Assembly (NCBI GenBank): GCA_973895155.1
Contig: OZ316894.1
Span: forward strand, 14,399,680-14,463,679
Direction of reading: 5' to 3'
Origin: Marsupella aquatica
Lineage: Eukaryota > Plantae > Marchantiophyta
Length of the DNA stretch: 64,000 bases
Made by a program: the position numbers and the translations under genes. The notes under the pieces were generated by a model that did not search any database, was not told where the DNA came from, and was given only the letters and a program-made list of their open reading frames with translations. Shown here piece by piece: positions 17,283 to 48,878 of this stretch. Each line of letters starts with the position of its first letter. Position 1 is the first letter of the stretch.

Positions 17283-17558
17283 AAGAAAACATAAGCAGCG
17301 CTCGGCGCTATCTTACACTATGGTCCTAAAAATGCGGTCTATTGAAGAGAATAATCGGAAAGAAAACCAAAATGCTTAAGCCTCGATCGACTCAGTCTCA
17401 AAACTTCCGCAAGAATATGCAGCGCTCAGCGCTATCTTACACTACGGTCCTAAAAATGCAGTCTAATGAAGAGCACAATTGGAAAGAAAACCATAACGCC
17501 TCGGTCGACTCAGTCTCAAAACTTCCGCAAGAACATAAGCAGCGCTCGGCACTATCTT
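17283..17558. repeat. Tandem repeat of about 120-125 bp (about 2.3 copies), each unit carrying an AGCGCTCGGCGCT-type palindrome
   Basis: The unit gcagcgctc.gcgctatcttacacta.ggtcctaaaaatgc...cgactcagtctcaaaacttccgcaagaa is repeated. Palindrome cores start at 17297, 17421 and 17541. Confidence 0.85.
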
Positions 17559-17635
17559 AAAGTTATGACCAAACCGAATGATGTAACATCGTTCACTGTG
17601 AAAAACCATCCAGCCAAAACATATGAAGAGCACCT

Positions 17636-18208: not shown

Positions 18209-19080
18209 GGGTTGGCTCTAGCACACCAACAGACACAAACCAGATGGACGTTGGTCTCTGAAATGTATATCGACGTAGTACTGACTACATACGGTTTGTC
18301 TCATTCTGAGGACCGTTGTAAGACACGACAAAGACACAATGGACAATCACCCCCAATAGAAGGAGGAAATATACCAACAATGAACCTCCATTTGGTAAGT
18401 GCCAGGTGCTGGTAAAAAACACCGATAATACGGCATCAATTTATACGGACCCTCATCAGCGGAACTGAATACATATTTGTACTAGCGCTTGGCGCTGGTA
18501 AAAAAATTCCCCTAAAGTTCCAAAAAATGTCTCACGATTTTGAAGAATCTGATTCTGAATTAGAATTTGTACTCTGTGACTTGTCTATGGACACAACCTC
18601 ATCGTCTACGTACTGACTCCGGGAAAAGTCATCAACATAAGGATTTTTAATGAACTTCCTGTCAACACCCTTTTGTAACCGAAGACCTTTGTTTTCCCAT
18701 CAAAGCGTCCTTGTACTCTCAACTTTCCTTGCGGCTTTCTCCGCATAGGAGGGAAGAACAAATGGTTTTTCCGGCGTTTCTATGTAGTGTCTGGCAACTC
18801 TCCTTTGGAGCTTGAAACGTCTATGAGCATTCCATTTTTGACCTGATGCAATGAATTCCAGCAAGTCAGGCACTTGTTTCAAGAACAACACAAAATTGGC
18901 ATAAATGGACGGGAATGGAGAAAGAAGCTTACAAGTTTATGAACATTACTCGGAAGAGTCATCACTATCGATTTCATTAGGAGATGCATGAGCCTCTTCC
19001 TTTTCCTCCTCTGAGTGCCCCGTAGCTTGTTGCTCTCTACCTTCACTGGACTCATCATCAGAATCAAAATTGAGAACCGA

Positions 19081-20060
19081 TCAAAGCTTATCTCGCTTCT
19101 TTTTGTCGGTAGGAGGAACAGGAGGAGGTAAAATTTGAATCTCTTTGGGAGACAACAAATCCATGAAAACCTTTGAAGTGGTTTCAATAAAGTCTTTCCT
19201 ATGTTCTATCCCGAGTACAAAGCGTCCAGAAAAATCTCCTGCAATGAAAGAGCTACCCGCCCCAACGGTCCAATCCATGAAAATATCACAAGGACGGGTG
19301 ACAAGCTCGATGACAGATTGCAAAACCCCAACAGACAAACAAGCATTTCCAGCAAACTCCATTTGTGGGAATGGATTGGATTTGAGAGAAGAAAGCCCGA
19401 TCAAATTGGTGATCGAGGGGTCTTCACTGATGGAGAGTGGACGGAATTTAGAGTCTTTGGGAATTTTACATTTCCCATTAATTTGGCCAAACATGTCCAG
19501 TCTGAGAGTAAACATCTGCCGAAAAAGCAATCTGAAGTGTCAGTTGGCGAATCCAGGTTACACGATTGATAACTCAAAAGGGGAAAGAGTCAAGAAGAGA
19601 TAATTACCTGACGGTCTGTCTTGGCCGTGTACATGGGAACAGACATCACAACATTTATGCGTACATATACATTGGAATCTTCTCGACAGACAGCAATGAC
19701 TTGAGACATGGGATTGTACTCCCCATTGTGTAGAATTGCAAGGACCCCATTGTCTAATAAAAATGGATCCATGGATTTGAAAAAAGAACTAGCCATTGAG
19801 TGGTCTGGCATGTTCCATTTAGGAACCTTCTTGTCAAGGATTGTCAGTTTGAACCCAATTGGAAGGTAAATGAAGTCTGCGTCGACTCCAAACAATCTTT
19901 CCTTTCCACCCCTCACAACACCCTTCACTTTGTATCCTGACTTTACTAGATCCTTCCCCCACTTTTCCACAATACTAACCCACTCTGGTTTCTCCTCTTT
20001 GTTGAAAGTCAAGTCAAAGAACTCAAATAGGCTTGACTCAACCATACAATGTCGAGACAT
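19081..20060 (-). pseudogene. Beta-class N6/N4 DNA methyltransferase-like domain of copy A (two exons, intron 19607-19516)
   Basis: VLQSVIELVTRPCDIFMDWTVGAGSSFIAGDFSGRFVLGIE matches the N6_N4_Mtase C-terminal pattern LLERLI..ST.PGD.VLDPF.GSGTT..AA...GR.FIGIE. The N-terminal half has ADFIYLPIGF at the motif IV position (degenerate) and FLLDNGVLAILH (an L.P.G-type motif). Confidence 0.7.
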
Positions 20061-20305
20061 TGTACTCTTGAAATTCCCAACTTCACGTTGGAGACCAGTT
20101 GCTGCAACACTCTCCCTTGAAGAAGGTCCTCCTTTGGTAACTCTTTTTCACTTCTTTCTAGTACTTGTGGCGTCGACTGGAACAATTACCTTCCCTTTGT
20201 CTACAGGAGTAATGGGGTCCGATCGAGCTCCTGTGTTTGCTTCAGAAACTTCAAGGGTAGCATCAGCTTTAGTATCTCCTATTCCTGCAGTATTTGACTT
20301 CCTCC

Positions 20306-23300
20306 TGTCACGTCGTCAGCCTTGGCCTTACTCCGGCTTTGGCTTAAATAGGCACATCCTTTGTCAAAATGAGGGTTCGGGCAGGGAGGGAGGCACGGAA
20401 TGCACCCAACTTACATAAAATAGCGCTAAGTGCGCCTATCATCATATACGGACACCTCCTAGGTATGTTTTGTGTTCCGCCACCGGAATGTACCTCAATC
20501 GATAGCAGGATCGACCCTGGCTTAAGGGCTTCTAAGCCTTCGTATTGTCCGCCTTTGATCCGGATTTTGTGGTATGGGTGCTCAACCCGGGCTCGCAACC
20601 ATGTACACGCAAGCTGCACCCCGTGCACTACTTGGGTAGTGCGTTCGGCCAAGCGTTGGCACCTATACACAAGATTCACACACATAGATACGCACAAGCA
20701 TAAAATCTCAATTTATACGAAGGAAATAACGGGAAGGGATTTTACTCCATAAGAGACATACGCGGTAAGGGCGTGCGCCTTCGCTAACAACTCATCGGCG
20801 GCTGCAACTTTGGGTTGTAGTTGCAGAAGCTCAGCCTCTTGAGCCGCAACTTTGTTCTTTAAGTATACGAACTCCACCCGGTACCGCTCTATCCTCTGAA
20901 GGGCCTCTGATTGGGCCCGACCTGCCTTTACTGCGGCAACCAACTCCTGATTGAAGAAATAGGCTACCTTCCGGGTCATGAACTCCCCGGTATCCTGGGC
21001 AATTTGATGAGAGAAATCTCCCAGAAGCCCGTTCAGAAATGTACCCGGTACGAAGAGTTCCGGGTGGTCCAGGTTGTGCCTGTCCGGAGTTGGGCACGAG
21101 CAGACGTCCACACGCGCGGGGGCTGGGGCAGTGACATCCAACCCTGGGGACGTAGTGTTGGAAGGGGTTGGAGTGTCCTCCTACAGCAATGTCCGGTTCT
21201 CCGGAATAGGGTGGGTCTTTGGGAGACCCGGGCTCGAGTAAAGGCCTCCGCTGTACCGACTTCTGTACTTGGACCGGCCTGTTGGATCGCATCTACGGTT
21301 GCAATTACCGACCCATCCGGTACCTCCTCGGTCATGACTATAGCTACTTGTGGAGGTGGGGTGGGTGAAGCCTGCATGTCCGCTGGACTTCGGCCTCGAG
21401 TTGGGGCCATCTCTCCAAGGCCGGGAAAACCCACTTAGCTGGGACCAGCTTTGTAACGTTGACACGGGGAAGGGTTCGTCGATCAAACCGAGCGTACCAC
21501 TCGAGAATGATCTCGATGTGGCTAGCAAAATACGCCTTCCCGCCAATGTATAGCGTCTTTCTTCGCCACTCCATCTCTTCGTGGAATTTCTTAGCGAAGT
21601 ACGATGCCCACTTCCTAGGTCGATAGTTCTCGACCTGGATAACCTGGGCAGCGGAGATCTCCCCTCGGGGTTCCATCATGTGGAGGGCGTACCTTTGGAA
21701 CTCCAGTCGCTCAGCTATCTCGGGAATGAGACAGGTCCTCATCACGAACCCGTTGTCCACTGCTCCCTCTGAGGGAAAACTCAAGGATTGGTACTTGGCT
21801 CCCTTGCCCCCGGGAGCCCGTGATTCAACTCGGTGGTCACCTTCGGGTAACCCAAAGATCATCTTGAGCCGTTCTTCCGTGAGGGACATATTCCTTCCCC
21901 GCAGCCGAGTAAGTTGACGTGCGTCATCATAATTCTTGACGAATTCTGTCATGTCCTCCCCGTAGTACCTGCAAGTGTTCCAGGGGAGAGAGGCGAGGTG
22001 CTCGAATCCCTGAGTCTTCAGGTACACCGCATGTTTGGGATGGAGGATGTTTTTATGCACGTTTTCCCCCATGCGGTGCATTGTCACCTTGGCCGCGGCT
22101 ACCGTGGCTAATGGTAACCCAGATGCAGCGGCGGGTTCCTTCCTCTTCTTCCCCCGTGACTGGCTTGGGGAGGGTGACACCTCCCCATCCTCTCGATCGG
22201 GCATAGGTAGTGCTACCGCCGTTAGTATTGGGCCCGGGGCGGCCACGGTCACCGTGTTGTTTGCTAGAGCCGTTCCTTGGGTCCAAGCATGGGGAGGGGA
22301 CGATGTAGTGTCGGCCCCCTGAGTGTTTGCTCCTCTGGGCCGCCTGAGCAAGGGTGGGGTAGCCTCATCATCGTCGCTAAGGTCCACAACATTGATGACG
22401 GAGCGTACTTGTACTGGCGGGGCGATTGGCGGTGGGGGTTAGCTAGGCTGAGACTAAGACTGAAGCTGAGTCTGCGCTGGTGCGGGTACGGGTATGGGGT
22501 CGACTGGGCCGGCGCCGGCGGGTGCAGGCCTAGTTCCCATGAAGCTCTGCAGGTGCTGGTAGAAGTTCTCCGAAGCAAGTGCAGAAGGCCTTGTCGAACG
22601 GGTAGTGCTAGACTCGCTGTTGATGATAGCCCGAACCTGAGCCCCTGATGTGGTCAAAGTGATGTCACTGCAAGTCAATCGTACCCGGGATATTGAAGAC
22701 CTCGTTCGGAAGCCAAAGCAATGCTTCCCAGAAACTGATATATTTGTCTCCGTTGAAGAAGTACCCAGATACCTCTGCTGGTCGGTAAAGCTCGCTCTGA
22801 GACGGGTAGTCAAAGTTAAGGATATAGTGGTGTCGTCTTGCTAGGTGGATGGCTCTCTCGTACTCGCATTCGATTTCATATCGGTGCGGGTTGGCGTGTT
22901 TCAATGAGTCGGCCAAGTGTCTTCCGGTAGATAGGAACTGCGTCCAGAATCGAATGGCCGAACTGGAGAGGATCATGTGCGACATTCAGAGGAGATAGCA
23001 GTGGCGACTAAGAGAGAACGAGAGAGCTGGGGTCGAAGCTGGCGCGTGGACTGATGGACTGGTGCACTACAAAGGGTCAGCTCCCTTTTTATACCCTAAG
23101 GGCTTGTCGATCACCCGGCGTCTCCTCGTTGCCTATAGGCTGAACCGTTCACGCTTGTAGTGTACCGGCCACTCCGCCGGTCTGAGTCAGCGCGTGTCAG
23201 TGGCCGCTTCCCTAAGTTCATTATACGGACCCGAGGGAGGGGCCCCTCCACGCTCGCAACCTGGGTGGGCGAATGGCGATACGCCGCCAGTCCGAACATG

Positions 23301-23452
23301 AATTCCCCTTATTGACTAATGATTTCCTACTCATAATGGTTACCTAAATACTGTCGTTATGCTAATAATAGTGGCCTAAGATACCCCTAACACACATGCT
23401 AAGTGCGGTCCAGACTGAATTACCGATTACTCACCGTACCGGCGGCGTCACA
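20306..23452 (-). repeat. 3' LTR (about 3.15 kb) of the Gypsy element
   Basis: Starts TGTGACGCC directly after the purine tract and ends ...CGTGACA at the TSD. Segment 22918-23452 matches 29390-29924. Confidence 0.75.
20713..22985 (-). pseudogene. LTR-encoded accessory ORF (plant mobile domain / Athila ORF1-like core plus coiled coil), fragmented
   Basis: ORF pieces 22665-22985, 21344-22387 and 20713-21141. The core GFEHLASLPW...MTEFVKNYD...LRGRNMSLTEERLKMIFGLPEG is homologous to ORFs at 37.5-38.5, 39.2-39.8 and 45.8-46.1 kb. Confidence 0.65.
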
Positions 23453-24788
23453 TAGCTCCCTACTTAACTGTGAAGCATCCTCGCGAACATCACTTTCGGC
23501 GTTGTCGTCTTGATGGTGGTACTTTTTTACACGATCGTAACTGACTCGCGTGGGGAGTAAATCGCCGGCGTACGTTGCAAGCTCCAAAGATCCGTTGGGG
23601 TAGATCTGATTGACTAGGAAGGGCCCTAACCAACGGGTATGAAGCTTCCCTAGAAACTGCATGTACCTACTATCGTATAGAAGGACCAGATCGCCTGTCA
23701 CGACATTGACCTTCCGTAGTCCTTTGTCGTGCTGCTTCTTAGAAGTTGCTTGCTGGTGTACGGCGTGTCGAGATGCTAGTAGTCGTGCCTCTTCTAAGGC
23801 TTCAATCTGATAAGCTTGGTCTGACGAACTTTCAGGTTTGGGCAAGCAATCCCGAATGCTGACCCGTGGAGTGTGTACTTCAAACTCGACGGGCACCAAC
23901 AAATGTTGGCCGAACGAGAAAGTACAGGCTGTGACTCGTAGTAGTTTTGTAAGCTAGATTATACACGTACACCGCTGCTTACAACTTATCATCCCAATCC
24001 GTTTTGTGCGCAGCTACAGTTTTGTTGAGGATCTTCCCAATGATACCATTGGCTCTCTCTGCCATCCCGTTGGCTTTAGGATGATACGGGGTAGTCTTGT
24101 GGTGCTTGACTAGGTAACGCTCCGTAAGCTGGGCTACCGTGTCATTGAGGAAGTGTGTTCCACGGTCGCTTACCAACTCTAAGGGCAGTCCGAACTGGGT
24201 GAAAATCTGTTCATATAAGAACCTGGCGCTGGTTGCGGCATCGTCCTTCACCGTAGCCCGCGCTTTGACCCACTTGGTGGAGTAATCTATAGCTAGTAGG
24301 ATGTACCTGCATCTTCACCTTCGGGTAACGGGAGTGAATGGCCCGATGTAATCAATACCCCACTTTTCAAAAGGTGCTAAGGGAAGCACTGATGTGAGAG
24401 GGTGATGATGAGCTCGTCTCGGGGCCCCAGCCCGTTGACACAGGTCACAGCCCTTGATGAAGCGTTGTACATCCCGATGCAACGTAGGCCACCAATACCC
24501 CGAGTCTAGAATCTTTTGGGCTGTCGTGATAGCCGCGAAATGGCCTCCAGCTTCTTCTTCATGCAAGGCCCGCATCACGATAAGTGTTTCCTTATACTCT
24601 AAGCAGCGTCGTAATTTCCCATTAACTCCTTCCTTATGTAGGTGGCCCTGTATCATGACATAAGGTCCGGCTTTCCTTAAAAACACAGCGGCGGCTTCCT
24701 GATTAATGCCGTCAGGGATGCGGCCCGTTAAGAGGAAGGTGATTATTGAACCGTACCACGTTGGCGTCATCGACCCTACATGGAACAA
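23420..24788 (-). pseudogene. Gypsy integrase (fragmented)
   Basis: HHCC region GHFAAITTAQKILDSGYWWPTLHRDV...CDLCQR, core WGIDYIGP / SDRGTHF / HPKANGMAER, and GPY/F-like WLGPF. Confidence 0.92.
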
Positions 24789-26425
24789 TTCCTCATCCAG
24801 AAAATATCATTAATTGGCTGATCGACTGGTACGCCGTCCAGCCTTGAAAATAAATCGACGTTGAGGTGTACCTTTCCTGGCCGAACCCGAACTTCGTAGT
24901 TAAATTCCTGGAGAAGTAGCACCCACCGGGCTATCCGTCCCGTCACGTCCGCTTTGTTGACCATGTACTTCAGGCTATCATGATCCGTGTGGAATATGAC
25001 CTTGTAGCCGAGTAGATAGTGTCGGAACTTTTTACACAAGTAGATTATTCCCAGAGCTTCTCGATCAGTGGGGGAATAATTCTTTTCGGCTGTGAATAAT
25101 TGACGGCTAGCGAAGTAGATGGGGTGGTCCCATCCGTCCTCATCAAGCTGACTGAGCACGGATCCAATACAGAACCCTGACACATTGACATACACGTGGA
25201 ACTCCTTATTCCAGTCTGGAGTGACCATGATAGGTGCGGTGGTGAGTCGTTTACGAAGTTCTTCGAAAGCAATCCATCTTCGAGGTGTCTCCTCGATCAC
25301 CGCGTCCTTCTTCATCATCTCAGTTAAGGGCAACGCAATTTTAGCAAAGTCTTTAATGAACCGACGGTAATACCCTACACAGCCCAAGAAGGATTGTACC
25401 GCTTTTTGATCCACGGGGAACACCACCGCCATCCAGGCCGCGACCTTCTCTTGATCCACCTCGATACCCCGTTTGGACACACGATGCCCGAGTAACACTC
25501 CCTCCTCTACCCCAAAAAAGCATTTGGCGGGATGTAGTTTGAGGTTAACCTCTCGGCATCGTTGCAACATACATCTTAGGTGTTCGGGGTGCATGGCGAC
25601 GGTTCCAAAGATGGCGAAGTCGTCGATAAATATCTCTAGAAATTCCCGTAGGAAATCATGGAAGATATTCATCATGAGTCGCTGAAACATGGCCGGAGCG
25701 TTACACAGTCCGAACGGCATTCTCTGAAATGCAAAAGTCCCCCATTCTGTAGTGAACGTTGTTTTGAGCTGATCCGAGAGGCGAATCCAGATTTGGTTAT
25801 AACCCGAATACCCGTCAAGGAATGTATAAATTTCATTTCGGGCTACCATATCTAGAACCATATCCATGAATGGTAACGGGTAATGGTCTTTTCGGGTCAC
25901 GTCGTTCAACTTACGATAGTCCTGACAGATCCGGATCTTAGGTTTTCCGTCCATACCTCCCTTTTTTGGTACAATGACGATGGGAGAGACCCAGTCGCTG
26001 GCCATTACCGGGTAGATGATATCTGCGGCGAGGAGATGATCAATTTCCTCCTTCCCTAAGATGGAGTACCTCGGGTTCATGCGATGTTGTCGCTACCGTA
26101 CTGCATGGGCCCCCAAATTCAAATCGATCGTGTGTTCTCCTAACTCGGGGGAGACTCCGGTTAAATCGTGATGGCTCCATGCAAACACATCTTCATATTC
26201 CTTGAGCAAAGCTTGGATAGATTTTTCTGCCTCCCTAGTCAGAGCGTGGCCCAGGTTAAAAGACTTATCCATCCCAATGGTGTACTTCCGGTAGTGCTCC
26301 TTCCTGATGACTTCAACCTGGGTCCGCAAGCTTGGGTCCAGGCTCGCATCGAGTTCAGCTAACCAAACTCCTCCGTACATGGGTGGAACCGGGATTGGTT
26401 TCGGGATTGGAGTCACTTCCACCAA
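24776..26425 (-). pseudogene. Gypsy reverse transcriptase + RNase H
   Basis: WVSPIVIVPKK, RICQDYRKLN, LDGYSGYNQI, MPFGLCNAPAMFQR, FIDDFAIF, FLGCVGYYRRFIKDF, AEKNYSPTDREAL, TDHDSLKY. Confidence 0.95.
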
Positions 26426-26443
26426 TTGTGGGATGGACGGATC

Positions 26444-28093
26444 CTAGGAAACTCGTTTCTTATGTCTTGGTCTCAGGTTTTTGGCATCGGGCGGTTGTTT
26501 GGCCGGTTCGTGGTCACGAGGCTCTGCACTGGTAGAAGCAGCATCGGCTCCCTGCTTAGCTGGAGCCGTGTCCTCTGTATTGATCGGTTGTTTTTGCGTT
26601 TCCTCATCCCGGGCGGTGGAGGTGCTCGGGGTGGACTCAATAGCAGCCTTCGGGTAATTCAGGAGATGTGTTTCCTGGGTTGCCTCAACTCCGAAGACAT
26701 CTTCCTCGGACAAGGACGAGATGAGTTCAATCATATTGAGTTCCTCTTCCTCCGAGGTCTTCGAATCATATTCCTCGGGTCCCTGTGGAGTTTCGCCCTG
26801 GTAATCGTCCATTGCCCATGATACCCGTACTGTGGGTGTCCCGAACCGTAGCTCCTTCTTTCCCCAATCCGTGACTACACGGCCACCGTACAGCCACGGC
26901 CTGCCTAGGAGGACCGGATAAGAGGAGGGCCAAACCGGCCTCATGACTAGGAAGTTGAGATAGAACTCCACCCCTCCCACCAGAGTGAGCACCCGTGTGA
27001 GCGTGCCTAATGGGAGGACCCTTGCCCCATTTGCTAATCTGATAGCTCGGGCCGTGGGTTGATATGTGAGGTGTCCTGACTTGACTGATGTTTCTTCAGT
27101 CATGATGTTGATGCCCGCTCCTCCGTCCACGAGAACCATCTTGATGGTACAATTATTAATTTCAATTGAGATGTCCGGCGCTCCCAGGTCCTCGCATATC
27201 ATGTTGCAATCTGCGATCCCAACACGGGGTAGTCGCCTCTGTCATCGACCCGTAAGCAACTCCCTCAATTGCCGTCGGTACTGTGGATTGTTTTGTAGCA
27301 GTTGTCCTACTGTTGCTGTAACCGGGAAACTCTTCACGTCTTCCTTAATATCATAGTCCTCCTTTTCTTCTTCCTTCGGTTGCTGCTTGACTTCCTCTTG
27401 CTGTTTCTTTACCATTTCTTTGATGCGGGGGAAAAATAGCTTCGGGTCGTCCCTACGGTAGTCATCATCTTTCTCTGGGGGTATGTCTATCGCTGGCTGC
27501 ACCGGAGTAGTATCTTGTTTTTTCCTGTGTTTCTCCTCCTGCTTCTCTTCCTTCCGTTCGGCTCTTATTGACACTCGGTAGCACTCAGCCTTGTCAGATG
27601 GATTAGGGTGCTCCGCCACGTCCACCAGATTTACCCACTCAGTGTTGTCATCTTGCCATTCCACAGCAATCATTTGGACGACTGCATCGCTCGTGGCCGG
27701 TCCACCCTGAGCTGGTCTTGCTCCATTTGTTCGAGCGGCTATTACCAATGGACAATTGGCCGTGGAATGAGCTTCCGTTTTGCAGACTTGACATAGTGGC
27801 ATGCCACGGCCATCCCCCTGGCGTCTTGGTTCTGTGCATTCCCTAGCAAAGTGGCCTGGCTTCTCACAGTTGTAACAAACCGGGGATCGCCAAATCCCTG
27901 GTTTAGGGGGAATGCTAGGATTACTGATAACTTGGAAACTTTGGCCATTGTTTGGGGAGGGGTATGCAGTTCTACTTGCTAAGTTACGCGGACCCACCGT
28001 TGAAATCTGATACACCGAATCAGGAGGGTCTTCAAAGAAATACTCCGTGGACTCCGCTTCAGGTCCCGGGTTGTCGACATCATCTAATTCCAC
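26444..28093 (-). pseudogene. Gypsy zinc knuckles + aspartic protease
   Basis: CCHC knuckles CYNCEKPGHFAREC and CQVCKTEAHSTANC; protease motifs LVDGGAGINIM and LLGRPWL. Confidence 0.9.
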
Positions 28094-28266
28094 CTGGTGA
28101 ACTCGGTTCTTCCATCTTGGGCATTCTTACACGACATGCCCGGATTGGAAGCACTTTGAACACCACGCATGGGCTCGGATCTCAAATGGCTTCTTCTTCT
28201 CCACCGGCTTTTCCGCGAGATGTACTGACAGTGCTTTGAGGCGATCCGTGATTTTGTTAAGCTTGT

Positions 28267-29319: not shown

Positions 29320-29389
29320 TTACTCATATACACATGATGGTTAGTAACTCACACGGGCCTGGTGTATTCTGCCCAGGTGCACCCGCACA

Positions 29390-36900: not shown

Positions 36901-38965
36901 GTCCCCTCGTACTACCCTTGGAAGTATGGGGATAAACCGGCCACAGGTCCTTACTCCTGGAACGTGATGGTCCGACCCATAGCCGGAGTTATCATGGCTG
37001 CAGTCCTCCACTGCCTCCTCTACTTCTTGGACTTCCGGCTTCTCCCTCTCTTGGTCGGTAGGAGCTTCAGGCAATTCTGCCTCAGATTCAAAGCTTGAGA
37101 CTCCCACGTACATTCGAACACCCGGCTTGGATTCTGGCCTGATTCTCTCCTTGTTTTTGGTAAAGGAGTTTTCCCTTCTAAGTCTGCTTAGGTTGACCTC
37201 TGGGGCAGTGTCCTGTATTGGTGCCGTTGCCAAAGCCGGTGCCGTTGCCGTCTTTTCCTTCTCCAGCATTTTCAGCAGATTCTGCATGCTTGGTTGCTGC
37301 ATTGGCAAGTCTTCCTTCCTTGGCCTAAACACCTGCTCAATCGTAGGGCTAACAGGTGGTTGAGGCTTCTCTGCTACCGGCCTTGGTGCTGGAGCTTCCT
37401 CGGGTACCCTTACCTGCAGGGGAAGTACTGGGGCAAAGGTCTGACCTCTGGCATACCGGCACAATAGCGGCATGTGATAGCCAAGCCGCGACACGCTCCC
37501 CATGCCGATTACCTACTGCTCCTCCTTTAAGATTTTCTTCAATTGGTTGAGGAGGTACCCGTTGTAGTCCCGGCTTGGGTCTGGCCTCTCTGCCAGATAG
37601 ACCTGTGCCTTGCCAATCTCTGCCCTTGTCAAGTTACAATGCATGGTCACCCACAAGAAGTCGATCATCTCTCCTATGTGCGGGTTGGTGCAGGTATTCC
37701 GGAAGAAGCAATTCTTCGTTGATGGCCCGGGGAACGACCGGAACTCTTTGTCAGGCAAGGTCTTCCTGGTATCAACCTTGGTCTTATTGCCCATCGGCAA
37801 GCCAAACACTTTGGCAATTACCTTGGGAGTAAGATAGAAATCCTTCCCATATATCCTCGTGCAATTGGTCTCGGGTTCCCATGACCCCACGAATTCTAAT
37901 AGGTCTGAATCCGGCACCTCCGGCTTTAGCCATGGTAATCTTACAAAGGCCTCTAAGCCGGATCCGGCCATGAAGCCTTGGTACTTCTTGGTCTGTATGG
38001 CCGTAAAGCATGCATCCTCCTCCCGTGCAAAATGTAGTTGCACCTCCACTGGTAGGGTTGCCGCCCAGCCTTTCCAGGTGTCATCCCTGGTTGGAATGGC
38101 ATTGATGGGATCGACCTCCTCCTCTTTGGCTTCTCCCTGCCTCCTGCTCTGCTGCTCGGCTGGCTTCTTTGGTGCCGCCGACCTCGTTCTTTTTGCCAGG
38201 GTGGCTTCATCGTTGACGGCTCCCTTCCTCTTCATCTCTGTTGCCGTGGAGGTTTCTCCTAGCACCGTTGCCTGGGTCCACCTTTCCGTGCTACCCTTCA
38301 ATTCCCAATGTATGTCGTTGCAGTTCTTGATGGCCTCTCGAATGCCGATGATTCTGTCTTCGCAAAACAGAAGATCGTCGAGCTGATTGGAAGTAGGAGT
38401 CCACAAGAACTTGGCCTTGATGAGTTTGCCTCCTAAGAAAGCCGTCTTCTGCAGCTCCCACAATCGAGCGAGCTCCTGTCGTTCTCGAGCTGCCCTTTCT
38501 GATTCTTCGTCCTCGTAAGTCTTGATGTACTCAGTTGCCCGTTCGAACAGGCATCCCTAGAAATGTGCCGCTTGATTGATGTTGCTCATACCCTCCTTGA
38601 GTCGATTGTTGGTATCTGTTCCCAACCCGAGTGCTTGTCTAAGCAGCTGATAGCATTTGGCCTCCCGTAGTCGTCTGCCTAGTTCGTTCTTGCAAATGAG
38701 CCACTATTCCTCGCGAGCGGTCCTTACCCCTCTCCTCTTCCGGTCCTTCCTTCCGTTGATCCTTCCTAGCCGTCGACGCTTAGCGCGCCCTAACCCTAAT
38801 CGAGTTTTCACCCCCAGCGTCCTTACCTCCGGCCTCGGCCCGGGTTCCATAGTCGCCCCTAATTGTTTATATTTTCCTTGTTTTGTCCCTATACTAAGGT
38901 GTTTCTAGGGTGCATTCCTGCTTTACCCACTTAACTGGCCGAGTGATTCCTGGCTAGGCATCACA
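33925..38965 (-). mobile_element. 5-kb element bounded by inverted repeats of about 385 bp (TGTGAT...ATCACA), nested in the solo LTR
   Basis: 33925-34309 is a diverged reverse complement of 38585-38965 (for example ctagccaggaatcact and agtgattcctggctag). No clean TSD. Confidence 0.75.
35224..38589 (-). pseudogene. Accessory protein of about 1120 aa: PMD-like domain + long coiled coil, two in-frame TAG stops
   Basis: ATG at 38589; stops at 38557-38559 and 37513-37515; ORFs 37513-38463 and 35224-37503 share one frame. LLEFVGSWEPETNCTRIYGKDFYLTPKVIAKVFGLPMG resembles the PMD pattern ERW.PET.TF..P.GE.TITL.DV..ILGLP. Heptad repeats KKELEEAHKELEEAKNELEEARKDL. Confidence 0.7.
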
Positions 38966-39208
38966 TCCATCCTCTCGGGCACAGGTGGTTCCTTGGATGG
39001 GGCGGTGAGCTCCTCCGTAGTCTGCAATGGGGAGGGAAAGGTTTCTTCAGGTGGTGGAGGGATTGGGGGTGGTTGTACTGGGGTAGCGGACGTTCGACGG
39101 AAGGGGGCGGTGGAATACCAACGGGAGGAGGTGGCGGAGTATTAGGTGGGGCCGCAGGCTCAGGGTTTGCCCAAGGCGCGGTAGTCTGCTCGCTCCTGGT
39201 TGCCTCCT

Positions 39209-40849
39209 CTAGAGCGAGGATGACATTAGTCGGGCTGAGGTAGCCATATTCTTCCCCCTTGCCTCCCGCCGCACTTTGTACCAGGCAAGGATGATGGCAA
39301 TGTGACTTCCCAGGTAGGTTCTTCCCCTGATAGACATACCTCCTTGAGCCCGATTAAGCTCCCCCAAGAACCTGCGGTAAAAGAATTGGGCCCAGTTCCG
39401 CCGTTTGTACTGTTCCACCTGTATGATCATACAGAGGGAGATCTCAGATTGTGGCTCAATCATGTGTAGGGTAGTCCGTATGAAGTTAAGCCGCTCCATA
39501 TAGACTAGGCTGGTGCATGACCCTTGCTTGTACCCGGTGTCTGTCTTACCCTCGGGTTTGAAGTGTCGGGGTGTATACTCCTTATCCCAAATTTGGAGTT
39601 CAACCGACACTGGCCCGGTTGGCAAACAAAAGATTTGTGCCAACCGATGCTCCGTAAGTGATAAGGTCTGTCCTGAAACCTTGGTGGTCGCTGCATCAGT
39701 GTCGAAGTTGGAGATGAACTCATAAACCTCCTTTGGCCCGACTGCGCTAGGTCTCCATAGCAAGTGAGCGAACTGCTCCAATTGATGCTCCTTGAGATAG
39801 TCCGCGTGGTCAGGTTTCTTGATTGTCGTCCAGACTACCTCGGGGACGCGGATTACCTGTAATAAGTTAGGCTGTTGATTATCCGAGGGCCATCGGGTCT
39901 GATTGGTCGATGGGTTGGTCGGGTCAGGCGTAGGGGCGGCGTTGGTTCACGTTGTTGGTTCGGGGGCCGGCGTCGTCCTTGCCCGCTTCCAAGAACGTGT
40001 TCAAGCTGCGGACTAACACGCTCAGAACCCAAGGAACACTCAGTGTTGTTCATGGGACGGACTTGGGACCGGTTTGGTGGTACGCTGGTGGTCATTGGCT
40101 GAGGGGCTGGGGGTGGTGTCGGGGTAGCCATATCCCAGTTGAAGGCGTTGGAGCTTTCCCCAAGGAACGTAAGATTGCGCACCGCTTCCCGTTGTCTGCT
40201 GATGTCTTCTTCACTCTTCTTGGCTGCAATCTGCTGGTCAATGTATCCCGGGATTTTGTCGAACTCCGCTGGAGTCAGCCTCTGGCTACCCCTCAGCCTA
40301 AAAAACTTTGCGGGGACTTCAAGAATCGCCTCTGCTAAACCCCTCCTTGCTGATATATAACTCGTTGATGTAGTCACAACTTGTAGCTGGAATCCCTGGT
40401 GATGGCTATCTTCTCACAGTTAACCTGTGCTACCTTAGCCACCAACTTTGCGTACCTTTGTTTGTAAGCGGCTTTCTCGGGGCAAGAATACCAGTAAGTC
40501 TAGGAGAACTTAGCACCTACCTCGCCAAACAAGGTCCAAAATCCCAAGGCTGTAAGGGACATACTAACCTTGTAGTCTGGTTTGTCGAGTCCACGTCCCC
40601 GCTCGGCAATTTTGCTTGCTGGTGGAGGTCATACTCGCCCTAACTAAATTCTGCCACAATCTGCTCTTATCCCTTGATAATTCCCTCGTAAAAGTTAGCT
40701 CAATTTGAGCAAAAGGCGAGAGGGAATGGCCGCGTCCACAAATTCTAAAAGGTATGAATGAGAAAATGGGCCGTGCCACCATTGACTCAGCTCTTATGGG
40801 GGTGCCAGGGTGAGCTGGAGCGTGAGAAGGCAAGGCCATTTTTAGTCAT
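39209..40849 (-). pseudogene. LTR-encoded PMD-like ORF, fragmented
   Basis: Close homologue of 44674-46143: AEAILEVPAKFF.L.GSQRLT and EFISNFDTDA..TKV.GQ.LSLTEHRL.QIFCLPTG. Confidence 0.7.
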
Positions 40850-43800
40850 CGATAATGGCTCAAAGTTGGGTATCTCGGTCCAAGCGTGATCTCCTAACGG
40901 ATTTTTACTCCGCCGCCGCCACCATACCTTGGTCAATTGTAATAATCCCCTTCCTTAATTCATAATCATTCAGTCAACTAACCTACTCCTAATCTATTCA
41001 TAATGGTAAAGATGGCTATTCGTGCTACTCTACGCTACGGCTACGGTCCTAATGACCGTATAAGTCCTAATCTAGGACCCACGTCCAGTTAAGTGACAGG
41101 TTACCCATGTCATAGTATGGGATATCAATATTCGGGACTCTTTAGTTTTGTTGTATTTTAGTTAGCGTCTGGCACTACTCAAATTGTGCCTAATATTTAT
41201 TGCCTTATGGTGAATTGGAGATTTTTCAATGGACCTTTTTGACAGTGTATGAGGGTCTGACATCCAGACTTATCGGAAAAAATGACAAAAAATCATTTAT
41301 GGCGCCAACGGATTCCATGTCGCCTACATTTCTTGTCTTATACAAATGGCTCTTTTAACATAAAGTTCCCAGGTGCAATTGGTATAAGCTCCACATTCTT
41401 GCAAACTTTTCTTTCTCAACAACTTTCAGCCCCCATATTTGTCTTTGATTGTAATGTCTTGGTCTATCGTTCTATCCCGCTTCGGGACTGGGGATATTGT
41501 CACCATCCCCATCCCTTTGGCAGACACGTACAAGCAAGTAGGGGAGAGATACTTTTGCAGAAGATTTGATTTGAACATGAATGACATTGAGTCCATTGTT
41601 TGAGAGGTTGAATCCATTGACGATATCAAAGATGCTACAACGTTCAATGTTGATGATGGTGAACAATTTTGGCATCTTAACGCTGGGATTTTGTACTCAC
41701 TTTGGGTTAGACCACCTGAAGGACTACCAGGTGTCCGCCAGGTTCCATTTGATGTTGTGGAGATTCTTCTAGTGAAGATGGAGATCACACTCCAAGTCCT
41801 TTGTTGAAGTTGAAAGTCCCGCAACATGTTTTCATTAAAGGTGAGACTTCGGGGAGCTCTAACTAGTTGGAGGTTGTGTATCGGCGAAGTGCAATGGACA
41901 CATTGCCCAAATCCACTGGTCATAGCGAGTTGTCAAGGTTCATATCAACGGGTGATTTCAGACATGAGCAAGTCTCTTGTTTGCCAAACAAGTACAACGG
42001 GAACATTGTCTTTGAATTGCCACCCATTGACAAGATGCTCTCAAAAAGGGTCTAGGCTTAGGGACATGGACCATGCCAAAGATTGCTACATTTGGACACG
42101 CATATTTCCAACCACCGCAAACGTGCAGCCAAAAAAACATTGGCAATTTGGTAAGGTTACCTGTACATGGTTTATTGAATGTCGGAACAAGTCCTGCGAG
42201 TACTTCCAAAGGAAGAAGAGGCAAACGCTAAAGCATGGCAGGGTGCTCCAAAGCTTAGTGGTCAATATGTTGTGGGTTCTTTTATTGAAGAGGGAGGTGT
42301 TGTATGTCATTAATGTCAAGCGATTCCATTTTGGTCAAGTACTGCCCTGCTCGCTTGTTTTATATGTACCCGCAAGTATTACTTGATGCAAAAACATGTA
42401 GTCATATGTCCCGCCTAGCAATTCACATAGGTGAGCATAACCATCCAGGTGAAAAACCTTCTCAAGGAGTGTAGAGAAGATGGCTGAGGATTTGATTAAA
42501 AAAAATCATGAAGCCAGTCCTCTTGCAAAACCAACAGGGATCTTGAATTCTGCTACAACGTTGATAGTGAAAGCTCTTTGCAAACATGTTGACGACATGG
42601 TTGATATCAAAGAAACTGAAATTTGGAAGTCTTTGATGGTACTTTCCACTCCCCAAAAGTTTGCATCGCTTTGTCAGAGCGTAAGGATAGACCAAAAGGG
42701 TCGGGGTGAGTTATATTTTCTCTTGCAAATGCAAAAGAGGATTAACCTTTTGTTTCTCCAAAGGTATTTGCTCCTAGGTAGGGTTGTCAAGACGATAGGC
42801 CTCACATCTTCAAAGTGACCGTGAAGGGTCATAGTTCCGGTGTAGATCTTTTGCGGCTGATGCAACCGGGTGGAAGACTCAAAGGAGCCTGGGTGAGTTT
42901 TGATGTCATGCGTTGTGTGACAACCGATTGGTTTAGTTTTAGCACGCACATCTACGACCATAACTTCCGTGCTCTTTGTACAATTTTCACATGCAAGTTG
43001 AAAGGTGAAGACACCAAGTCTTTTGAAAAGGCTTGGAGAGTTATGATAGAGGTTTGCAAGGAAAATGGATTACAGGATGTTGTCATCCAAGGGTTTATGG
43101 CGGACAATGCACAAGCAGGATGGAATGTTGTCCGCAATGTTTTTTTGGGTGGACACCCAGCCCCGGAGTGGGAGCGCTCTGATGCATTTCACTTTTATCA
43201 ATCTTTTCATCAACATTCCAAGGAAGTCCAAGTATTGGAAGAATGTCAATCAGAACATTGGAGGTTGTGGGAGAAACTAAGAAACACTCCAACGTTTGTG
43301 GTGGCGTATCGGGTGTCCCGAGAGATTGTGGTGTGGTGGCAATCAAGAAACTGTGTACCAGGAAAGCTCTTGATGCTACAAAGCTGGATATCCTGGTGGG
43401 TTGTTCGCTAGCGCCAGTGGGGGAATTTTATTTCAATGGTATGATATATATCTCCTCTCTTGTTTGTCATTGTACATCAACTTTAGACTAGCGCCAGGCG
43501 CTGATTTTATTTTCATGTAATTCACACGTTGAAACAATGATTGCAATACATTGAAGCCCATATGTCAATAAATTGCAAGAGTCAGAGATTCAAATTGTAT
43601 TTGACGTTTGTATAACATAATTGTCATTGACAGCGTTGGGCGCTGGTAATAGAATGTCACTTATTGTTGAATTTGTACTATGGCAGAGCAAAAGCGTAGA
43701 AGAAGGTGCCTTGATTCCCAATTGTACAGGGTCATAATCAAGGCATGCCTCTATGAAAGCATGGGCTACGAAGAAAAAGGTTGGTCTTTTTGAAGATTGC

Positions 43801-44410
43801 AAAGTTGACCAAAACCGTGCTCTGTCGCAAATTGCAGGATATAGTGCATACCAAAAAGGGTTGAACAAAGGAAAGGGGCCAACTATATGGGAATTGGCGT
43901 TCCGTTCTGCCGATCAAGCAGGTTTGCCGAGGTTATTTGAAGATGCGACCAACATGCTTCTTTCCAACGTGGCAAGCTTTGATTTGGAAAGAACTAATCC
44001 CCTTAACGGAGATATAGTGACAAAGTCAATGAAGAGGAAGGGACCTGCAACTAGGATTGTCTTGCCACAAGACTCCCATCGGCATGACACTGTTTTCATA
44101 ACCACACCAAATACTCTAGGCTTGAAAAGGAAAAACCTCAACAAAACTGACTTTGCCTTCATTCCCTCAACTTCTGAAGATCCTGTTACAAGAGTGGTGG
44201 ATCTCTCTGGTCTGGACACATCAGCGGGTGATAGTGATTCACTAGACAATACCCCTCAAACAACTCATGCAACAAGATCCTCTAGACCGCCGCTCAATGC
44301 CCCAGCCGCACTTCAAAATCCTCTTCCACAGACTATTCCACTGGAGAAGGATGTCCCTCTAGGTCAGTGGCAGTTGCGACGGATGTCAAAATATGGAGCA
44401 AGACCCCAGT

Positions 44411-46827
44411 TGTGACACGAGTAACGTGTCACTTAACCGAACCCAGGTCATAGATTAGGTCTTATACGGACGTTAGGACCGTAGCCGTAGCGTAGAATAG
44501 CACATATAGCCGTCCGTTGCCATTATGAATAGATTAGGAGTAGGTTAAGATGACCGAATAATTACGAGTTCAGGAAGAGGATTATTACGCGCGACCACGG
44601 TATGGTGGCTGCAGCGGAGTAAAAATCAGTTAGAAGTCACGCTTGGACCGAGGCGCCGACTTCAGCTCATTCAATGACCAAAATGGCCTGGCCTTCTCAC
44701 GCTCGGGCTCATCTTGGCACCTCCATAAGAGAGGAGCCGATGGCGCTGCGGGCCATTTTCTCATTTCCACCTTTTTGGAATTCGCGGACATTGCCATCCA
44801 CTCGCCTTTCTGATCGAATCAAGTCGACCTTTACAAGGAGATTATCGAGGGATAAGAGCGGAATATGGCAAGATTTAGTCAGGACGAGCGAGACCTCCAC
44901 AAGTAAAGGACCAACCGAGGGGGAACGTGGACTCAACGGACCGGACTACGAGGTTAGTATGACCCTTACAGCCTTGGGATTTTGGACCTTGTTTGGCGAG
45001 GTAGGTGCTAAGTTCTCCGAGACTTATTGGTACTCTTGCCCCGAGAAAGCCGCTTACGAACAAAGATATGCGAAGCTGGTGACCAAGGTAGCACTGGTTA
45101 ATTGCGAAAGGACAGCCATCACCAGGGATTCCAGCTACAACGAGCTGCGAGACTACATCACCGAACTATATCTCAGCGAGGAAGGGCTTAGATCGGTAGC
45201 AGAGGCAATTCTTGAAGTCCCAGCGAAGTTCTTTAAGCTGAAGGGCAGCCAGCGGCTTACTCAAGCGGAGTTCGACAAGATTCCGGGGTACCTAGACCAG
45301 CAGATCGCAGCCAAAAAGCGCCAAGAAGACATCAGCAGACAACGGGAAGCGGCGCATAATCTTACGTTCCTTGGGGAAAGCTCCAACGCCTTCAACTGGG
45401 ATATGGCTACCCCGATACCACCAGTGCCTCAGCCGATGACCATCGGCGTACCGCCAAACCGGTCCCAAGTCCGTCCAGTGATCAACACAGAGTGTTCTTT
45501 AGGTTCCAAGCAAGTTAGTCCGCAACTCGAACAGCGTTCTCGTAAGCAGCCAAGGACGACGATGGCCCCCGAATCAACAACGCAAACCAACGCCGCTCCT
45601 GCACCTGCCCCGGCGAACCCCCCGGCCAACCAGAACCGACGGCCCCCGGATAACCCGAAGTCCAACTTATTACAGATAATCCGTGTCCCCGAAGTAGTCT
45701 GGATCGCGATCAAGAAACTTGAACACGCGGACTATCTCAAGGAGCATCAGTTGGAGTAGTTTGCTCACTTGCTATGGAGGCCGTGCGCCACCGGGCCAAA
45801 GGAAATTTGTGAGTTCATCTCCAATTTTGACACTGACGCATCGGCCACCAAGGTTTTGGGGCAGGCCTTATCACTCACGGAGCATCGGTTAACGCAAATC
45901 TTCTGTCTGCCAACCGGGCCGGTGCCGGTTGAACTCCGAATTTGGGATAAGGAGTATATGCCGTGGCACTTCAAACCCGAGGGTAAGACGGACAACGGAT
46001 ACAAGCAGGGGTCGTGCACCAACTTAATCTGCATGGAGCGTCTTAACTTCATACGTCTTAACTTCATACGGATCATTGAGCCACGATCCGAGATTTCCCT
46101 CTGCACGATCGTGCAGGTGGAACAGTACAAATGGCGGAACTAGGCCCAATTCTTCTACCAAAGATTCTCGGGGGAGCTGAAGCGGGCTCAGGGTGGTATG
46201 GCTATTGGGGGGAAGGCTTAGTTATCTTAGTAGAAGATAGGTGAGGCACGGGGAGTCCCGGCCTGAGCAGGGTCAGAGCGCACCAAGGAGTGAGAGCCAG
46301 AGTCGAGCTTGCTGGGCAAGTGCGAGGCAGGGTCTCGTAGAGACTGGGCATCGACTGCCATTGGGCCTGCTAACCCCCTTTGAAGTCGAGTCAACCATGT
46401 AAACTGATGCTTCGCTGAGTAAATGTAGTCTTTTCCCTCTAATGTTTCCGCAAGTAACTGGTGTTGTGAGTATGCTTTGTCTGGGCAAAGGCACCATTTT
46501 AAGGGACGTACCGGGTGCAGACTAATGGTAGGGATTGCCACCCATTGTATGTCACAAGGTTCTTTCGCGTCGATGGCTTGAAAAGCCCCAAGCCAGGAGT
46601 TAGTCCGAGTCACTAACTAAGGGAGGATTCCAGCGGTGGAAGATAAAAGATACCTATGACTAGTACAAATTGCTTAAGCGTTATACCAGTAAGTATAGCG
46701 GCTTAGCCCGACTTAGGGCTAATCGGAGCCACTACACACCTCCTTGCCCGAACCCTCACCCCTACTGGTGGTCGAGGTCGCACCATGGCACTAAACTGGA
46801 TTTAAGGCCCAGGTTAGGGACGCGACA
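44411..46827 (+). mobile_element. Solo-LTR-like unit with an internal deletion, same family as 32973-41114
   Basis: TGTGACAC...CGCGACA termini; TSD CCAGT at 44406-44410 and 46828-46832. Confidence 0.9.
44674..46143 (+). pseudogene. LTR-encoded PMD-like ORF (361 aa open, then TAG, continuing in frame)
   Basis: ORFs 44674-45759 and 45769-46143 are in one frame and are homologous to the other LTR ORFs. Confidence 0.7.
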
Positions 46828-48878
46828 CCAGTGTAATGGGACTCTCTGTGGGAATTCTGATCGCGATGAGTGTCAAAATTGTATCAAGAAATTTGGATTA
46901 CATTCGTCTGACGGTGTTGTTGGAATTGTCGTGAGGGGCCATCGTCTTTTTAGGGGCAAACCCATATCCAAAATGATTTGGTTCTGCCCAAACAAAGCAT
47001 GTTATAGGAGTCACCCGCATCGTGGGGTTGATCGACTTCCTCCTGTTCCTGATATTTTTCCGGTTCTGAAGGGTACAAGCCTGTCTCCCTCTGAAATTAA
47101 GTTCCTCGAAGGGCAAGGACTTGTGCTAGCCCAAACACCAGGATTGAGTTGATCTGTGCCATCTTTGTTTGATCTCAGGATAAATGTGACCGTGTTCCCC
47201 AAAACAATAAAGTTTTTGGAGCCAAATGTCCGGCTGGGTAGTCGAAACAAGAGGAACTCAAGGCCTCAATCTAATCTTACTATGGATCACACTAAGCGAA
47301 TGGAGTCTACACGAAAAGAAGAGATGAATTTGGATGGGAATGGGATGTTCAGACTGGAAATGATTTTGGAAAGCAATTTCAAATTTGAACCCATGAGAAC
47401 CTTCAATCGCCAAGCACTTACTTTGTCCAAATCTGTATCTTCCCTGCTTGCTCTTGTGAGGACTTCTTCCGGCGGCATTCGCGTGGCAAGTCGTACATGC
47501 CTTGTAAACATCTCTATTGGGTGTACATTAATGTTTTCAAATTTGATGTTGAGGAGTCGACTCTTTGTAGCCAACCAGTTTTGACAGTGGGCAAAGTCAA
47601 GCTTGTCTTGGAGAGGCAGAACGTGAATGGCTTATAATAGAACCCAAAAATTCCGTGTAACTTGTTCTACATAACGGATAGTCACTATTTTGTCTTTAGC
47701 CAACGGATATTTTACTGGTTTGTTCAAAAGATTTTGGTTAGCGTTGGGCACTGCTTCCAGTAGTTGCTACGTTCCTTGCTTTATGATGTGCCTATAAGAG
47801 AGAATCATTAGGACATGTTCCATTTTATATGTATGTCTTTTATCTTTAAAGTCGTGTGTTCAATCATTCTGAATAATACAGTTGGCACCAGGCGCTGTTT
47901 TGTCATTTGTTTGTTGGGATACAGGGTCCATTTAAGTGAACCCATTGTGATTGATGTCATTTGGACACCAGCCTTGACTAGTGCTATTAATGGTGGGTCC
48001 CACCCAAGGGTAACTCTTTAGCCTGGACAATTTGTGAGTTATTATTGGGTATGGTCCCAATTATGTGTTATATGATCTTCTACAATAAATTGTCGTGTCA
48101 AAGGACCCTTGAAGTACTATTGAGCTCGCATGGCACTAAAAGATTTGTTAGTTTTGAAGCTAATTCCTTAAGACAAACTCATGTGATTGGCGTAGTTTTT
48201 CAGTATTGAAGGCTTCCAACCATAGGTATGTTCTGAGTGTATATAATTTATATGTAGTGGGAGAGACTTTTTCTCATTTGTATCAAGGGGTTATGGTTTA
48301 TGCTAAACTGGTAACAGGGAAAGTTTTACTGGTAATAGGTAAATTTTGGCTGTTAACAATAAAGGGTTTCCTGGTAACAGGTTATCTGTTTTCTGTTTTC
48401 TGTCATGGTTGCCATACACCTCAATTCTTACCGAATGGTGACAATGCTAAGCTCATCCGGACCACCTCTTCAAGATCTTTCCAACGCCATATTATACGTG
48501 AGTTTTCATTATGATTTGACTCAGCAATGTCAAATAAAAAATTGTTGTCGGGAAATTTTTATGTTTTAAATAAAATGGTTAGTGGGAGCAGTTTTACCTC
48601 AATCTTTTTGTCTTTTGATTTGTCTTTTTTTTACATTCTTTTTTACGGCATGGCGTCCTAGTTTTTACAGCAAAGTTGCCACAAACACAAATGCAGAAGT
48701 TCATTTTATCCAAAAACAAGTCTCTTCCTATTTGCAGCGTGCATGATGATGTGGCGTGCTGTGGAGCCAGGAATTTTGGAAAGGACCCCTAATGGGGGTC
48801 CGTAATAAGAGCATATCAACTACTATAATATCTAAATACTGCCAAAAGTGTTGGGTAGATTGTTTACAAAGTGGGTAG

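Follow-up and report, generated by a model that had tools for sequence, protein, structure and literature searches.

We analysed a window of 64,000 nucleotides from the liverwort Marsupella aquatica (contig OZ316894.1, positions 14,399,680 to 14,463,679; all coordinates below are those of the window), in which a likely Mutator-like transposase gene and an accessory gene lie head-to-head inside a decayed DNA transposon, here called element 1. The accessory protein is predicted to join a ParB-type fold to a methylase fold. Two further copies of the accessory gene lie to the right, one of them in a second element (element 2), and short palindromes are repeated through the non-coding DNA of both elements. 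The original prediction for this DNA, made from the letters alone, was of a new giant Mutator-like transposon with a prokaryote-derived ParB-methyltransferase module, perhaps serving to mark, spread along or protect the element. The features of element 1 are as follows.

17190-18443, no strand: DNA left of the candidate end, with the element-1 palindrome and an open reading frame (ORF)-like stretch; true left arm or sibling element
18444-48804, no strand: element 1, a DNA transposon in decay, with an established right end and a candidate left end; native length about 10.2 kb once the three insertions are taken out
18444-18462, no strand: candidate left terminus, matching the right terminal 20-mer in inverted orientation at 16/20, the most in the window
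18532-18842, minus: accessory gene copy 1, exon 5; conserved LPSYA..PYVDD tail
18950-19515, minus: copy 1, exon 4; encodes the S-adenosylmethionine (SAM)-binding half of the methylase fold, with DWTVGAGS..GIE, plus an acidic stretch; its 3' border is uncertain
19608-29932, minus: copy 1, exon 3, split by the retroelement at 20306-29924; linker and N-terminal half of the methylase fold; catalytic position YLPI
20306-29924, minus: later insertion, Ty3-type long terminal repeat (LTR) retroelement with gag, reverse transcriptase, RNase H and integrase zinc finger; target-site duplication CCTCC
30126-31462, minus: copy 1, exon 2; helical region; stops at 31434 and 30942 and frameshifts
31584-32332, minus: copy 1, exon 1; encodes the ParB nucleotide-binding domain, which includes DGNHR; carries a frameshift
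32973-41114, no strand: later insertion, in which a 5.7-kb piece (33588-39323) is nested inside a 2.4-kb LTR-like unit; target-site duplication GTATG
41456-47637, plus: transposase pseudogene of about 1170 codons with a single intron near 43440-43690; split by the LTR at 44411-46827
44411-46827, no strand: later insertion, a solo LTR-like unit belonging to the family of the insertion at 32973-41114; target-site duplication CCAGT
48786-48804, no strand: right terminus; contigs of runs X1, X2 and X4 diverge behind 48805

Extent and copies of element 1

The three later insertions had been predicted, and 5-bp direct repeats were found exactly at the borders claimed for them. The 2.4-kb LTR-like unit of the insertion at 44411-46827 also forms both ends of the one at 32973-41114, and the ORFs tested from these two insertions had no Pfam match; these include long ORFs of 762, 347 and 378 amino acids in the nested insert (33588-39323) and in the LTR-like unit (44623-45759).

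Behind position 48805, 45, 37 and 72 contigs of runs X1, X2 and X4 (three of four public runs, among the contigs listed) exit into mutually unlike AT-rich DNA, and since they exit at one place, the right end of the element lies there. Dispersed copies with a common discrete end, here at 48804, are as expected of a Mutator-like element (MULE). MULEs make target-site duplications of 8-11 bp, and such a duplication was sought at 18444/48804 and not found, the flanks sharing TA only; scans for terminal inverted repeats and target-site duplications on the window sequence alone gave nothing above background. The element-1 palindrome described below occurs at 18398 and also at 17297, 17421 and 17541, inside a tandem array of 118-126 bp units. 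Because the flanks share only TA and the palindrome goes on to 17.3 kb, the left end is not fixed at 18444: both 18444 and about 17.1 kb are candidates, giving a native size of 10-11.5 kb (10,168 bases if the left end is 18444). The word “giant” was generous for an element of about 10.2 kb, as it would be with the former end, and the element extends to 48804, past the limit of 47637 given originally. On the minus strand at 17630-18400, downstream of gene copy 1, a broken ORF-like stretch takes the position that the Ulp1 gene has in element 2; this stretch (about 17.6-18.4 kb) had no match in Pfam and profile searches.

In the four public runs, contigs representing many variants of both genes were present, and the two genes had similar summed depth. 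In run X1 the summed contig depth was about 740-1350 vs 14-18 for exact unique contigs, which is to be read as a hint only and not as a copy number. Element 1 is one copy, now broken, of a DNA transposon present in many copies. It was also observed that between 29600 and 44500 the other copies more often have G or C where the window copy has A or T (substitutions in X1: A>G 317 and T>C 365 vs G>A 184 and C>T 216), which is the pattern expected if the window copy decayed by deamination of methylated cytosine.

The transposase and the accessory gene

The transposase comprises a Cys/His-rich N-terminal domain, a D..D..DxxH..(E) core, a second Cys-rich stretch and a SWIM-type finger. Its core contains the segments SFDVM (D), FMADN (D), SDAFH (DxxH) and an ES-x-H-type segment in which the Glu codon is a stop (43735). 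MULE transposases have a C/D-x2-H motif after the second Asp, and we take all of these segments to be MULE-like. The conserved Cys/His pattern of the N-terminus, ending in HxGxHxHP, and the SWIM-type CxC-x15-CxH at 47389-47637 were recognised by eye and are without Pfam match, and the transposase gave no match in Pfam, NCBIfam, PHROGs, PDB profiles or plasmid records. The GCM-like/MULE-DDE/SWIM assignment made originally is a likely one by these motifs, with no library match. MULE transposases are described as having an N-terminal WRKY-GCM1 zinc domain and a C-terminal SWIM finger (PMC1702500; this and the other published systems are cited from the accessible parts of their descriptions), and by this layout the transposase is likely Mutator-like.

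Copy 1 of the accessory gene had been described as a spliced gene of five exons with an FDGNHRL domain. This domain was located in exon 1, and the five-exon outline holds, with GT..AG borders at introns 1-3; it is not exact to the base, the donor of the last intron being ambiguous (the phases misfit at 18949 and a donor near 19040 fits). The C-terminal LPSYA..NPYVDD segment agrees with the tails of homologues. The start codons of the accessory gene (ATG 32332, inferred from a homologue) and the transposase (ATG 41456) lie on opposite strands, 976 bp apart after removal of the insert, in agreement with the predicted distance of under 1 kb. Both genes contain stops and frameshifts and are pseudogenes, and the window copy is therefore dead.

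Homologue searches gave 7 and then 124 relatives of the accessory protein. Of 30 proteins looked up, 13 homologues had organism names, all of them Riccia, Calypogeia, Ceratodon or Adiantum, and no named prokaryotic member was found among the looked-up proteins of the 124 relatives. These names and the nearby host genes, among them an intron-bearing AAA ATPase gene, indicate a non-seed land plant. An atlas search with a Riccia homologue returned streptophyte clusters only (<0.8), which is a lead only.

A predicted ParB fold in the accessory protein

We compared known structures with an AlphaFold model of a Riccia (liverwort) homologue, which has a predicted local distance difference test score of 84. 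In Foldseek the best 16 rows listed were all ParB, Noc, KorB, pNOB8 or sulfiredoxin. Whole chains of ParB, Noc and KorB, with both nucleotide and helix-turn-helix domains, aligned over 179-203 residues (Z 8.0-8.4, root-mean-square deviation 5.5-9.9) and spanned about residues 95-465 of the model, and in an unbiased wide structure search KorB came first (Z 7.1) and PadC second (Z 6.3). The ParB/Srx-like domain of the original prediction is borne out by these three comparisons, which ParB, Noc, KorB and sulfiredoxin lead, none of them being individually strong. The model has a ParB/Srx domain and then a helix-turn-helix domain, as ParB proteins do, at middling scores (Z up to 8.4), and the accessory protein is predicted to hold the ParB nucleotide-binding and helix-turn-helix fold.

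Because whole ParB chains match model residues of about 95-465, the long middle region, originally called uncharacterised, would hold the ParB-type DNA-binding part, and much of it is likely an expanded ParB DNA-binding domain. Exon 2 of copy 1 corresponds by homology to the stretch of the liverwort model that is matched to the helix-turn-helix domain of ParB (prob 99.9, the alignment searched including the window piece itself). The GxxR motif is kept in 47 of the 54 homologues covering it, the box-I Arg in 50 of 55 and a downstream Asn in all 49 covering sequences. PDB profile searches with alignments of the ParB region found nothing, and NCBIfam gave a weak DGQHR match only (E 0.005).

Palindromes in the two elements

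A 13-bp palindrome, AGCGCCWGGCGCT, has 14 matches in the window at ≤ 2 mismatches vs 0.59 expected, and this number was reached in none of 100 shuffles. Ten of the matches are inside native element 1, and all ten are non-coding, non-coding DNA being 34% of the element. That the two genes share one palindrome, as had been claimed, is correct in that a single motif runs through both of them; its sites all lie outside the coding sequence. A different palindrome, ATCTCGGAGAGSCTCTCCGAGAT, characterises element 2. These sites, element 2 and the other gene copies are located as follows.

18484-47896, no strand: ten AGCGCCWGGCGCT sites, at 18484, 29999, 30086, 31515, 32670, 32816, 32954, 41164, 43490 and 47884, in introns, intergenic DNA and 3' DNA
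53676-62500 (borders approximate), no strand: element 2, multicopy; it contains gene copy 2 together with a gene for a Ulp1 protease, and a transposase of this family was not seen
53862-62442, no strand: 54 element-2 palindromes ATCTCGGAGAGSCTCTCCGAGAT (23 bp), 54/54 non-coding, many in tandem arrays of 34, 43 and 53-54 bp units
54289-55400, minus: Ulp1-family protease gene (PF02902, E 7.6e-16), broken
55523-60300, minus: gene copy 2, from another clade, its exon 1 being 40-44% identical to that of copy 1; QLGT at the catalytic position; broken
62910-64000, plus: gene copy 3, copy 1 clade, truncated where the window ends; its intron 1 holds an element-1-type palindrome (63586), and upstream there is no transposase

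Ulp1 genes are fellow cargo of VANDAL-like elements. The motif arrays of element 2 lie near both of its ends (53.7-54.2 kb and 61.3-62.5 kb), and neither the AGCGCCWGGCGCT type in element 2 nor the ATCTCGGAGAGSCTCTCCGAGAT type in element 1 was found. The likeness to the element-specific motifs of VANDAL elements, drawn in the original prediction, is supported by the non-coding position of every site in each element, and family-specific motifs in non-coding DNA, often in tandem, are what is described for the VANDAL protein VANC.

In a protein tree of exon 1 (44 sequences) copies 1 and 3 group together (99/91), and copy 2 groups with L002 and L003 (100/99), which are two of four short loci (L001-L004) from a metagenome scan. 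The intron after exon 1 carries a palindrome of the copy-2 type in both L002 (18/23 bases) and L003 (17/23 bases), and none of 60 shuffles reached either value. Palindrome type tracks protein clade in five informative sequences from two clades, as expected for a protein and its site.

The positions of the sites bear on two further roles for the protein. As a transposition cofactor, it would bind the palindromes and join short, dissimilar ends for the transposase, with no effect on silencing; the terminal repeat is short at best (16/20), there are motif arrays close to the two ends of element 2 and near 17.3-17.6 kb, and ParB is known to bridge DNA. Most sites, however, lie well away from the ends, within introns or in the DNA separating the genes, which is the VANC pattern (PMC5735166), and the gene is also present without the transposase, so that we consider a cofactor unlikely. 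Four of the ten element-1 sites fall in the 1-kb divergent promoter region, and KorB, which tops the wide structure search, represses at a distance (PMC12409273); these would suit a KorB-like repressor or copy-number control which limits transposase expression at the shared promoter. Against this, the sites run through introns and 3' DNA and form long arrays in element 2, which is more than an operator needs and leaves such a repressor very unlikely.

Two repeat tracts lie beside the gene copies. Low-complexity CGCAC/CTCA repeats are found directly upstream of copy 2 (60360-60830), and three 80-bp tandem repeats upstream of copy 3 (62587-62836) each contain an imperfect palindrome unlike AGCGCCWGGCGCT and ATCTCGGAGAGSCTCTCCGAGAT; they may represent a third type of motif or mark where a third element ends.

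Linkage and selection

The head-to-head arrangement described originally holds for copy 1, which is one of three gene copies in the window; copies 2 and 3 are without an adjacent transposase. Among the 124 homologues, in two Riccia gene models on different contigs, the accessory gene is fused to part of a transposase of this family (E 4e-21 with a profile, E 2.5e-10 in a small database), with both genes on one strand. Since these models join the two genes, the genes are neighbours there. The pairing recurs, and its orientation is not always head-to-head. No contig joining 32972 to 41115, and so bridging both genes, was present among the 15 of 237 joints listed, and no transposase match was found in L001-L004, which are short.

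The ratio of nonsynonymous to synonymous substitution rates was 0.11 for copy 1 vs copy 3 (exon 2, 86 codons), synonymous sites in exon 1 being saturated, and 0.24 for copy 2 vs L002, the other pairs being saturated. The accessory gene, judged by these ratios, is under long purifying selection, and since the divergence is mostly synonymous, it would have been useful to the element for a long time. This selection argues against the gene being passive cargo or an independent mobile unit, with the transposase next to it by chance and the palindromes as unrelated repeats. The two window copies without a transposase and the lack of a bridging contig among the joints and short loci above would fit such cargo; the single motif running through both genes, the two Riccia models and the multicopy state of both genes at similar summed depth in four runs (a weak measure) speak against it, and it is hardly plausible.

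The methylase domain

The C-terminal domain has the fold of beta-class N6-adenine/N4-cytosine (N6A/N4C) methylases: a profile of the family matched DpnA (E 1.1e-6) and the homologue model matched CcrM (E 2.7e-11). Both show a permuted Rossmann fold with the catalytic motif before the SAM motif, which is the arrangement of PF01555. In Pfam, PF01555 matched 9 of the 124 homologues at E ≤ 0.005, 1 of them above the cut-off, and exon 4 of the window at E 0.021. The comparison with ParB and methylase structures which had been proposed as a check matched both folds, and Pfam gave no ParB match.

The N4/N6-methyltransferase fold was thus correctly predicted, as judged by profile, model and Pfam, and what is gone is the catalytic motif. 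None of 36 family members has the canonical [DNS]PP[YFW], and the window reads YLPI in copy 1 and QLGT in copy 2 at this position. Intact relatives also lack the motif (YLPT and FLPN for copy 1; QLGT, SVGT and QMGA for copy 2), so that its loss is not decay of the window copy, and those of both window clades are without even the catalytic Asp. The SAM loop reads DWTVGAGS..E in copy 1, follows D-[FWCY]-x-G-x-x-G in most of 16 rows and is eroded in copy 2 (SWNVHFGA). The domain is probably inactive and not a DNA writer, as far as its residues tell, and marking of the element's own DNA is unlikely because none of the 36 members keeps the catalytic motif. There is a precedent for inactive methylase domains borne by transposons in DIRS1 retroelements (PMC4738411).

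The original prediction had pointed to the bacterial-type methyltransferases of Marchantia, and an active writer of N4-methylcytosine or N6-methyladenine (4mC/6mA) of that type is not supported: the motif is absent in 36 of 36 members, including an intact close relative of copy 1, and MpDN4MT1 has TSPPY. In a version of this idea the enzyme would be active with a non-canonical motif, writing 4mC/6mA as the clamp spreads and so protecting or marking the element. The clear beta-class fold, with one homologue above the PF01555 cut-off, would allow this, as would the D-x-P retained in 25 of 36 members, one of which keeps the aromatic (DVPF), and the SAM-loop residues kept in copy 1; the Ectocarpus protein described below was also predicted by its describers to methylate (PMC12477816). 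It is opposed by the stacking aromatic missing in 35 of 36 members, by the absence of even the Asp in the window clades and by the eroded SAM loop of copy 2, and we regard an active writer as quite unlikely.

Comparison with known systems

The gene design is already published for brown and red algal transposons, and the claim that it was new was not upheld. Sola1-1_Ec32 of Ectocarpus carries a 1104-aa gene for a ParB-like and N4C/N6A methylase protein on the strand opposite the transposase, and the protein was proposed to bind and modify its own element (PMC12477816). The window gene shares this architecture, as compared by description only: one protein of about 1100 amino acids with ParB-like and amino-methylase parts, opposite the transposase on a large DNA transposon. 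The differences are that Sola1-1_Ec32 is a 21.5-kb element of a brown alga with a Sola transposase, whereas the Marsupella element belongs to a land plant, is likely Mutator-like, has lost the catalytic motif and has clade-specific palindromes.

In red algae, Plavaka elements (Bostrychia PAG2 and PAG3) and Chondrus Mutator elements have accessory genes for ParB and an N6A methylase, accompanied by arrays of inverted repeats (bioRxiv 10.1101/2025.02.11.637652), and they likewise carry a ParB-like domain and a PF01555 methylase as transposon cargo. The tandem inverted repeats beside the ParB gene were proposed as its sites, and the cassette moves between transposon families. The Plavaka case has two genes, one fusing the ParB to a 2-oxoglutarate oxygenase and the other fusing the methylase to SET, whereas the window has one protein. 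No land-plant report of such elements was found in the literature searched, subscription papers, Repbase and the supplements of the algal papers being outside the search. What is new is their presence in non-seed land plants, the family-wide erosion of the catalytic motif and the clade-specific palindromes.

VANDAL elements are Mutator-like, as the window element likely is, and have an accessory protein, VANC, which binds family-specific, non-coding, tandemly repeated motifs (PMC5735166). As in the window, these short motifs lie in introns, intergenic DNA and terminal DNA and are tandemly amplified. They are non-palindromic 8-9-mers, in contrast to ours, and anti-silencing is shown for VANC and inferred for the window element.

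BisD, a ParB clamp of the mobile element ICEclc, is loaded at palindromes and switches on genes across 50 kb, and one of its candidate sites is also an 11-bp inverted repeat (PMC12409273). With ParB, Noc, KorB and BisD the window family shares the predicted nucleotide-binding and helix-turn-helix fold, the GxxR motif and palindromic candidate sites. It differs from the bacterial clamps in its large helical insertions, C-terminal methylase fold and introns, and in having no ENxxR and no ParA partner. Its methylase part has the permuted fold and motif order of the beta-class enzymes CcrM, M1.HpyAVI, MboIIA and PvuII and of Marchantia MpDN4MT1; these enzymes keep DPPY or TSPPY (bioRxiv 10.1101/2021.02.12.428880 for MpDN4MT1), whereas the window family has neither.

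Proposed mechanism

We propose that the accessory protein is a ParB clamp with a likely inactive methylase domain which loads on the palindromes of its own element, spreads and keeps the element expressed against host silencing, and we give this proposal an even chance of being right. A dimer of the protein would bind the palindrome, the clamp would close upon nucleotide binding, and the closed clamp would slide along the 10-kb element, as ParB, KorB and BisD suggest. The effect would be a local relief from silencing, and protein and motif would diverge together such that each family addresses only itself, both by analogy with VANC. Instead of writing, the methylase fold may bind DNA or SAM and act as an effector or scaffold. 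By the same analogies we read this as a ParB/parS-like self-addressing accessory system, and probably as an anti-silencing, VANC-like one.

Several observations weigh against this proposal. In the ParB part, ENxxR is not kept, the position reading MHxxN-like with only the Asn constant (49/49); Foldseek gave no match at E ≤ 0.001 for the Riccia model (best 0.069); a Pfam ParB match is absent in the window pieces and 131 homologues; and a Z near 8 may also arise in helical proteins. The link between motif and clade comes from two clades and five informative sequences, and L001 (a short intron piece) and L004, two of the four outside loci, show neither motif, other palindromes there not being distinctive. 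The palindromes could be sites of the transposase instead, against which it counts that element 2 and copy 3 carry palindromes without a visible transposase. Residual methylase activity is possible because 25 of the 36 members keep D-x-P, with one keeping the aromatic, and most keep a SAM-loop-like GxG. Anti-silencing is drawn by analogy only, and the protein showed neither homology to VANC nor a similar fold.

Very few examples are known of transposon proteins that address their own DNA to counter silencing, and it is an open question how VANC-type factors cover a whole element from few short motifs. A ParB clamp would provide a concrete spreading mechanism, and the window offers two candidate protein-palindrome pairs for cross-testing. 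More broadly, non-seed land plants may have a working nuclear ParB/parS-like system, in which transposon-encoded, family-specific sliding clamps carry a repurposed methylase fold over the full length of the element to switch off silencing; this we put forward tentatively and hold to be rather doubtful. If true, it would be a second, prokaryote-derived answer to the problem solved by VANC and a ready set of orthogonal protein-motif pairs. The window family also adds liverworts, mosses and ferns to the hosts of a class of accessory genes described from algae, for which the label of methylase may be mistaken.

Neighbouring features

Directly right of element 1, a 3.2-kb LTR-type element (48879-52105) has near-identical LTRs of 142 bp and the target-site duplication GGTAG and is multicopy in the runs. 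Inside it, on the minus strand, an ORF at 50078-50557 encodes a BBR/BPC GAGA-binding domain (PF06217, E 1e-33), which is a DNA-binding domain of the Polycomb-recruiting type. To the left of element 1 are a 313-bp tandem duplication, 98% identical, at 15946-16572 and, at 12660-14800, an intact-looking spliced host gene for an AAA ATPase (PF00004, E 2.7e-8).

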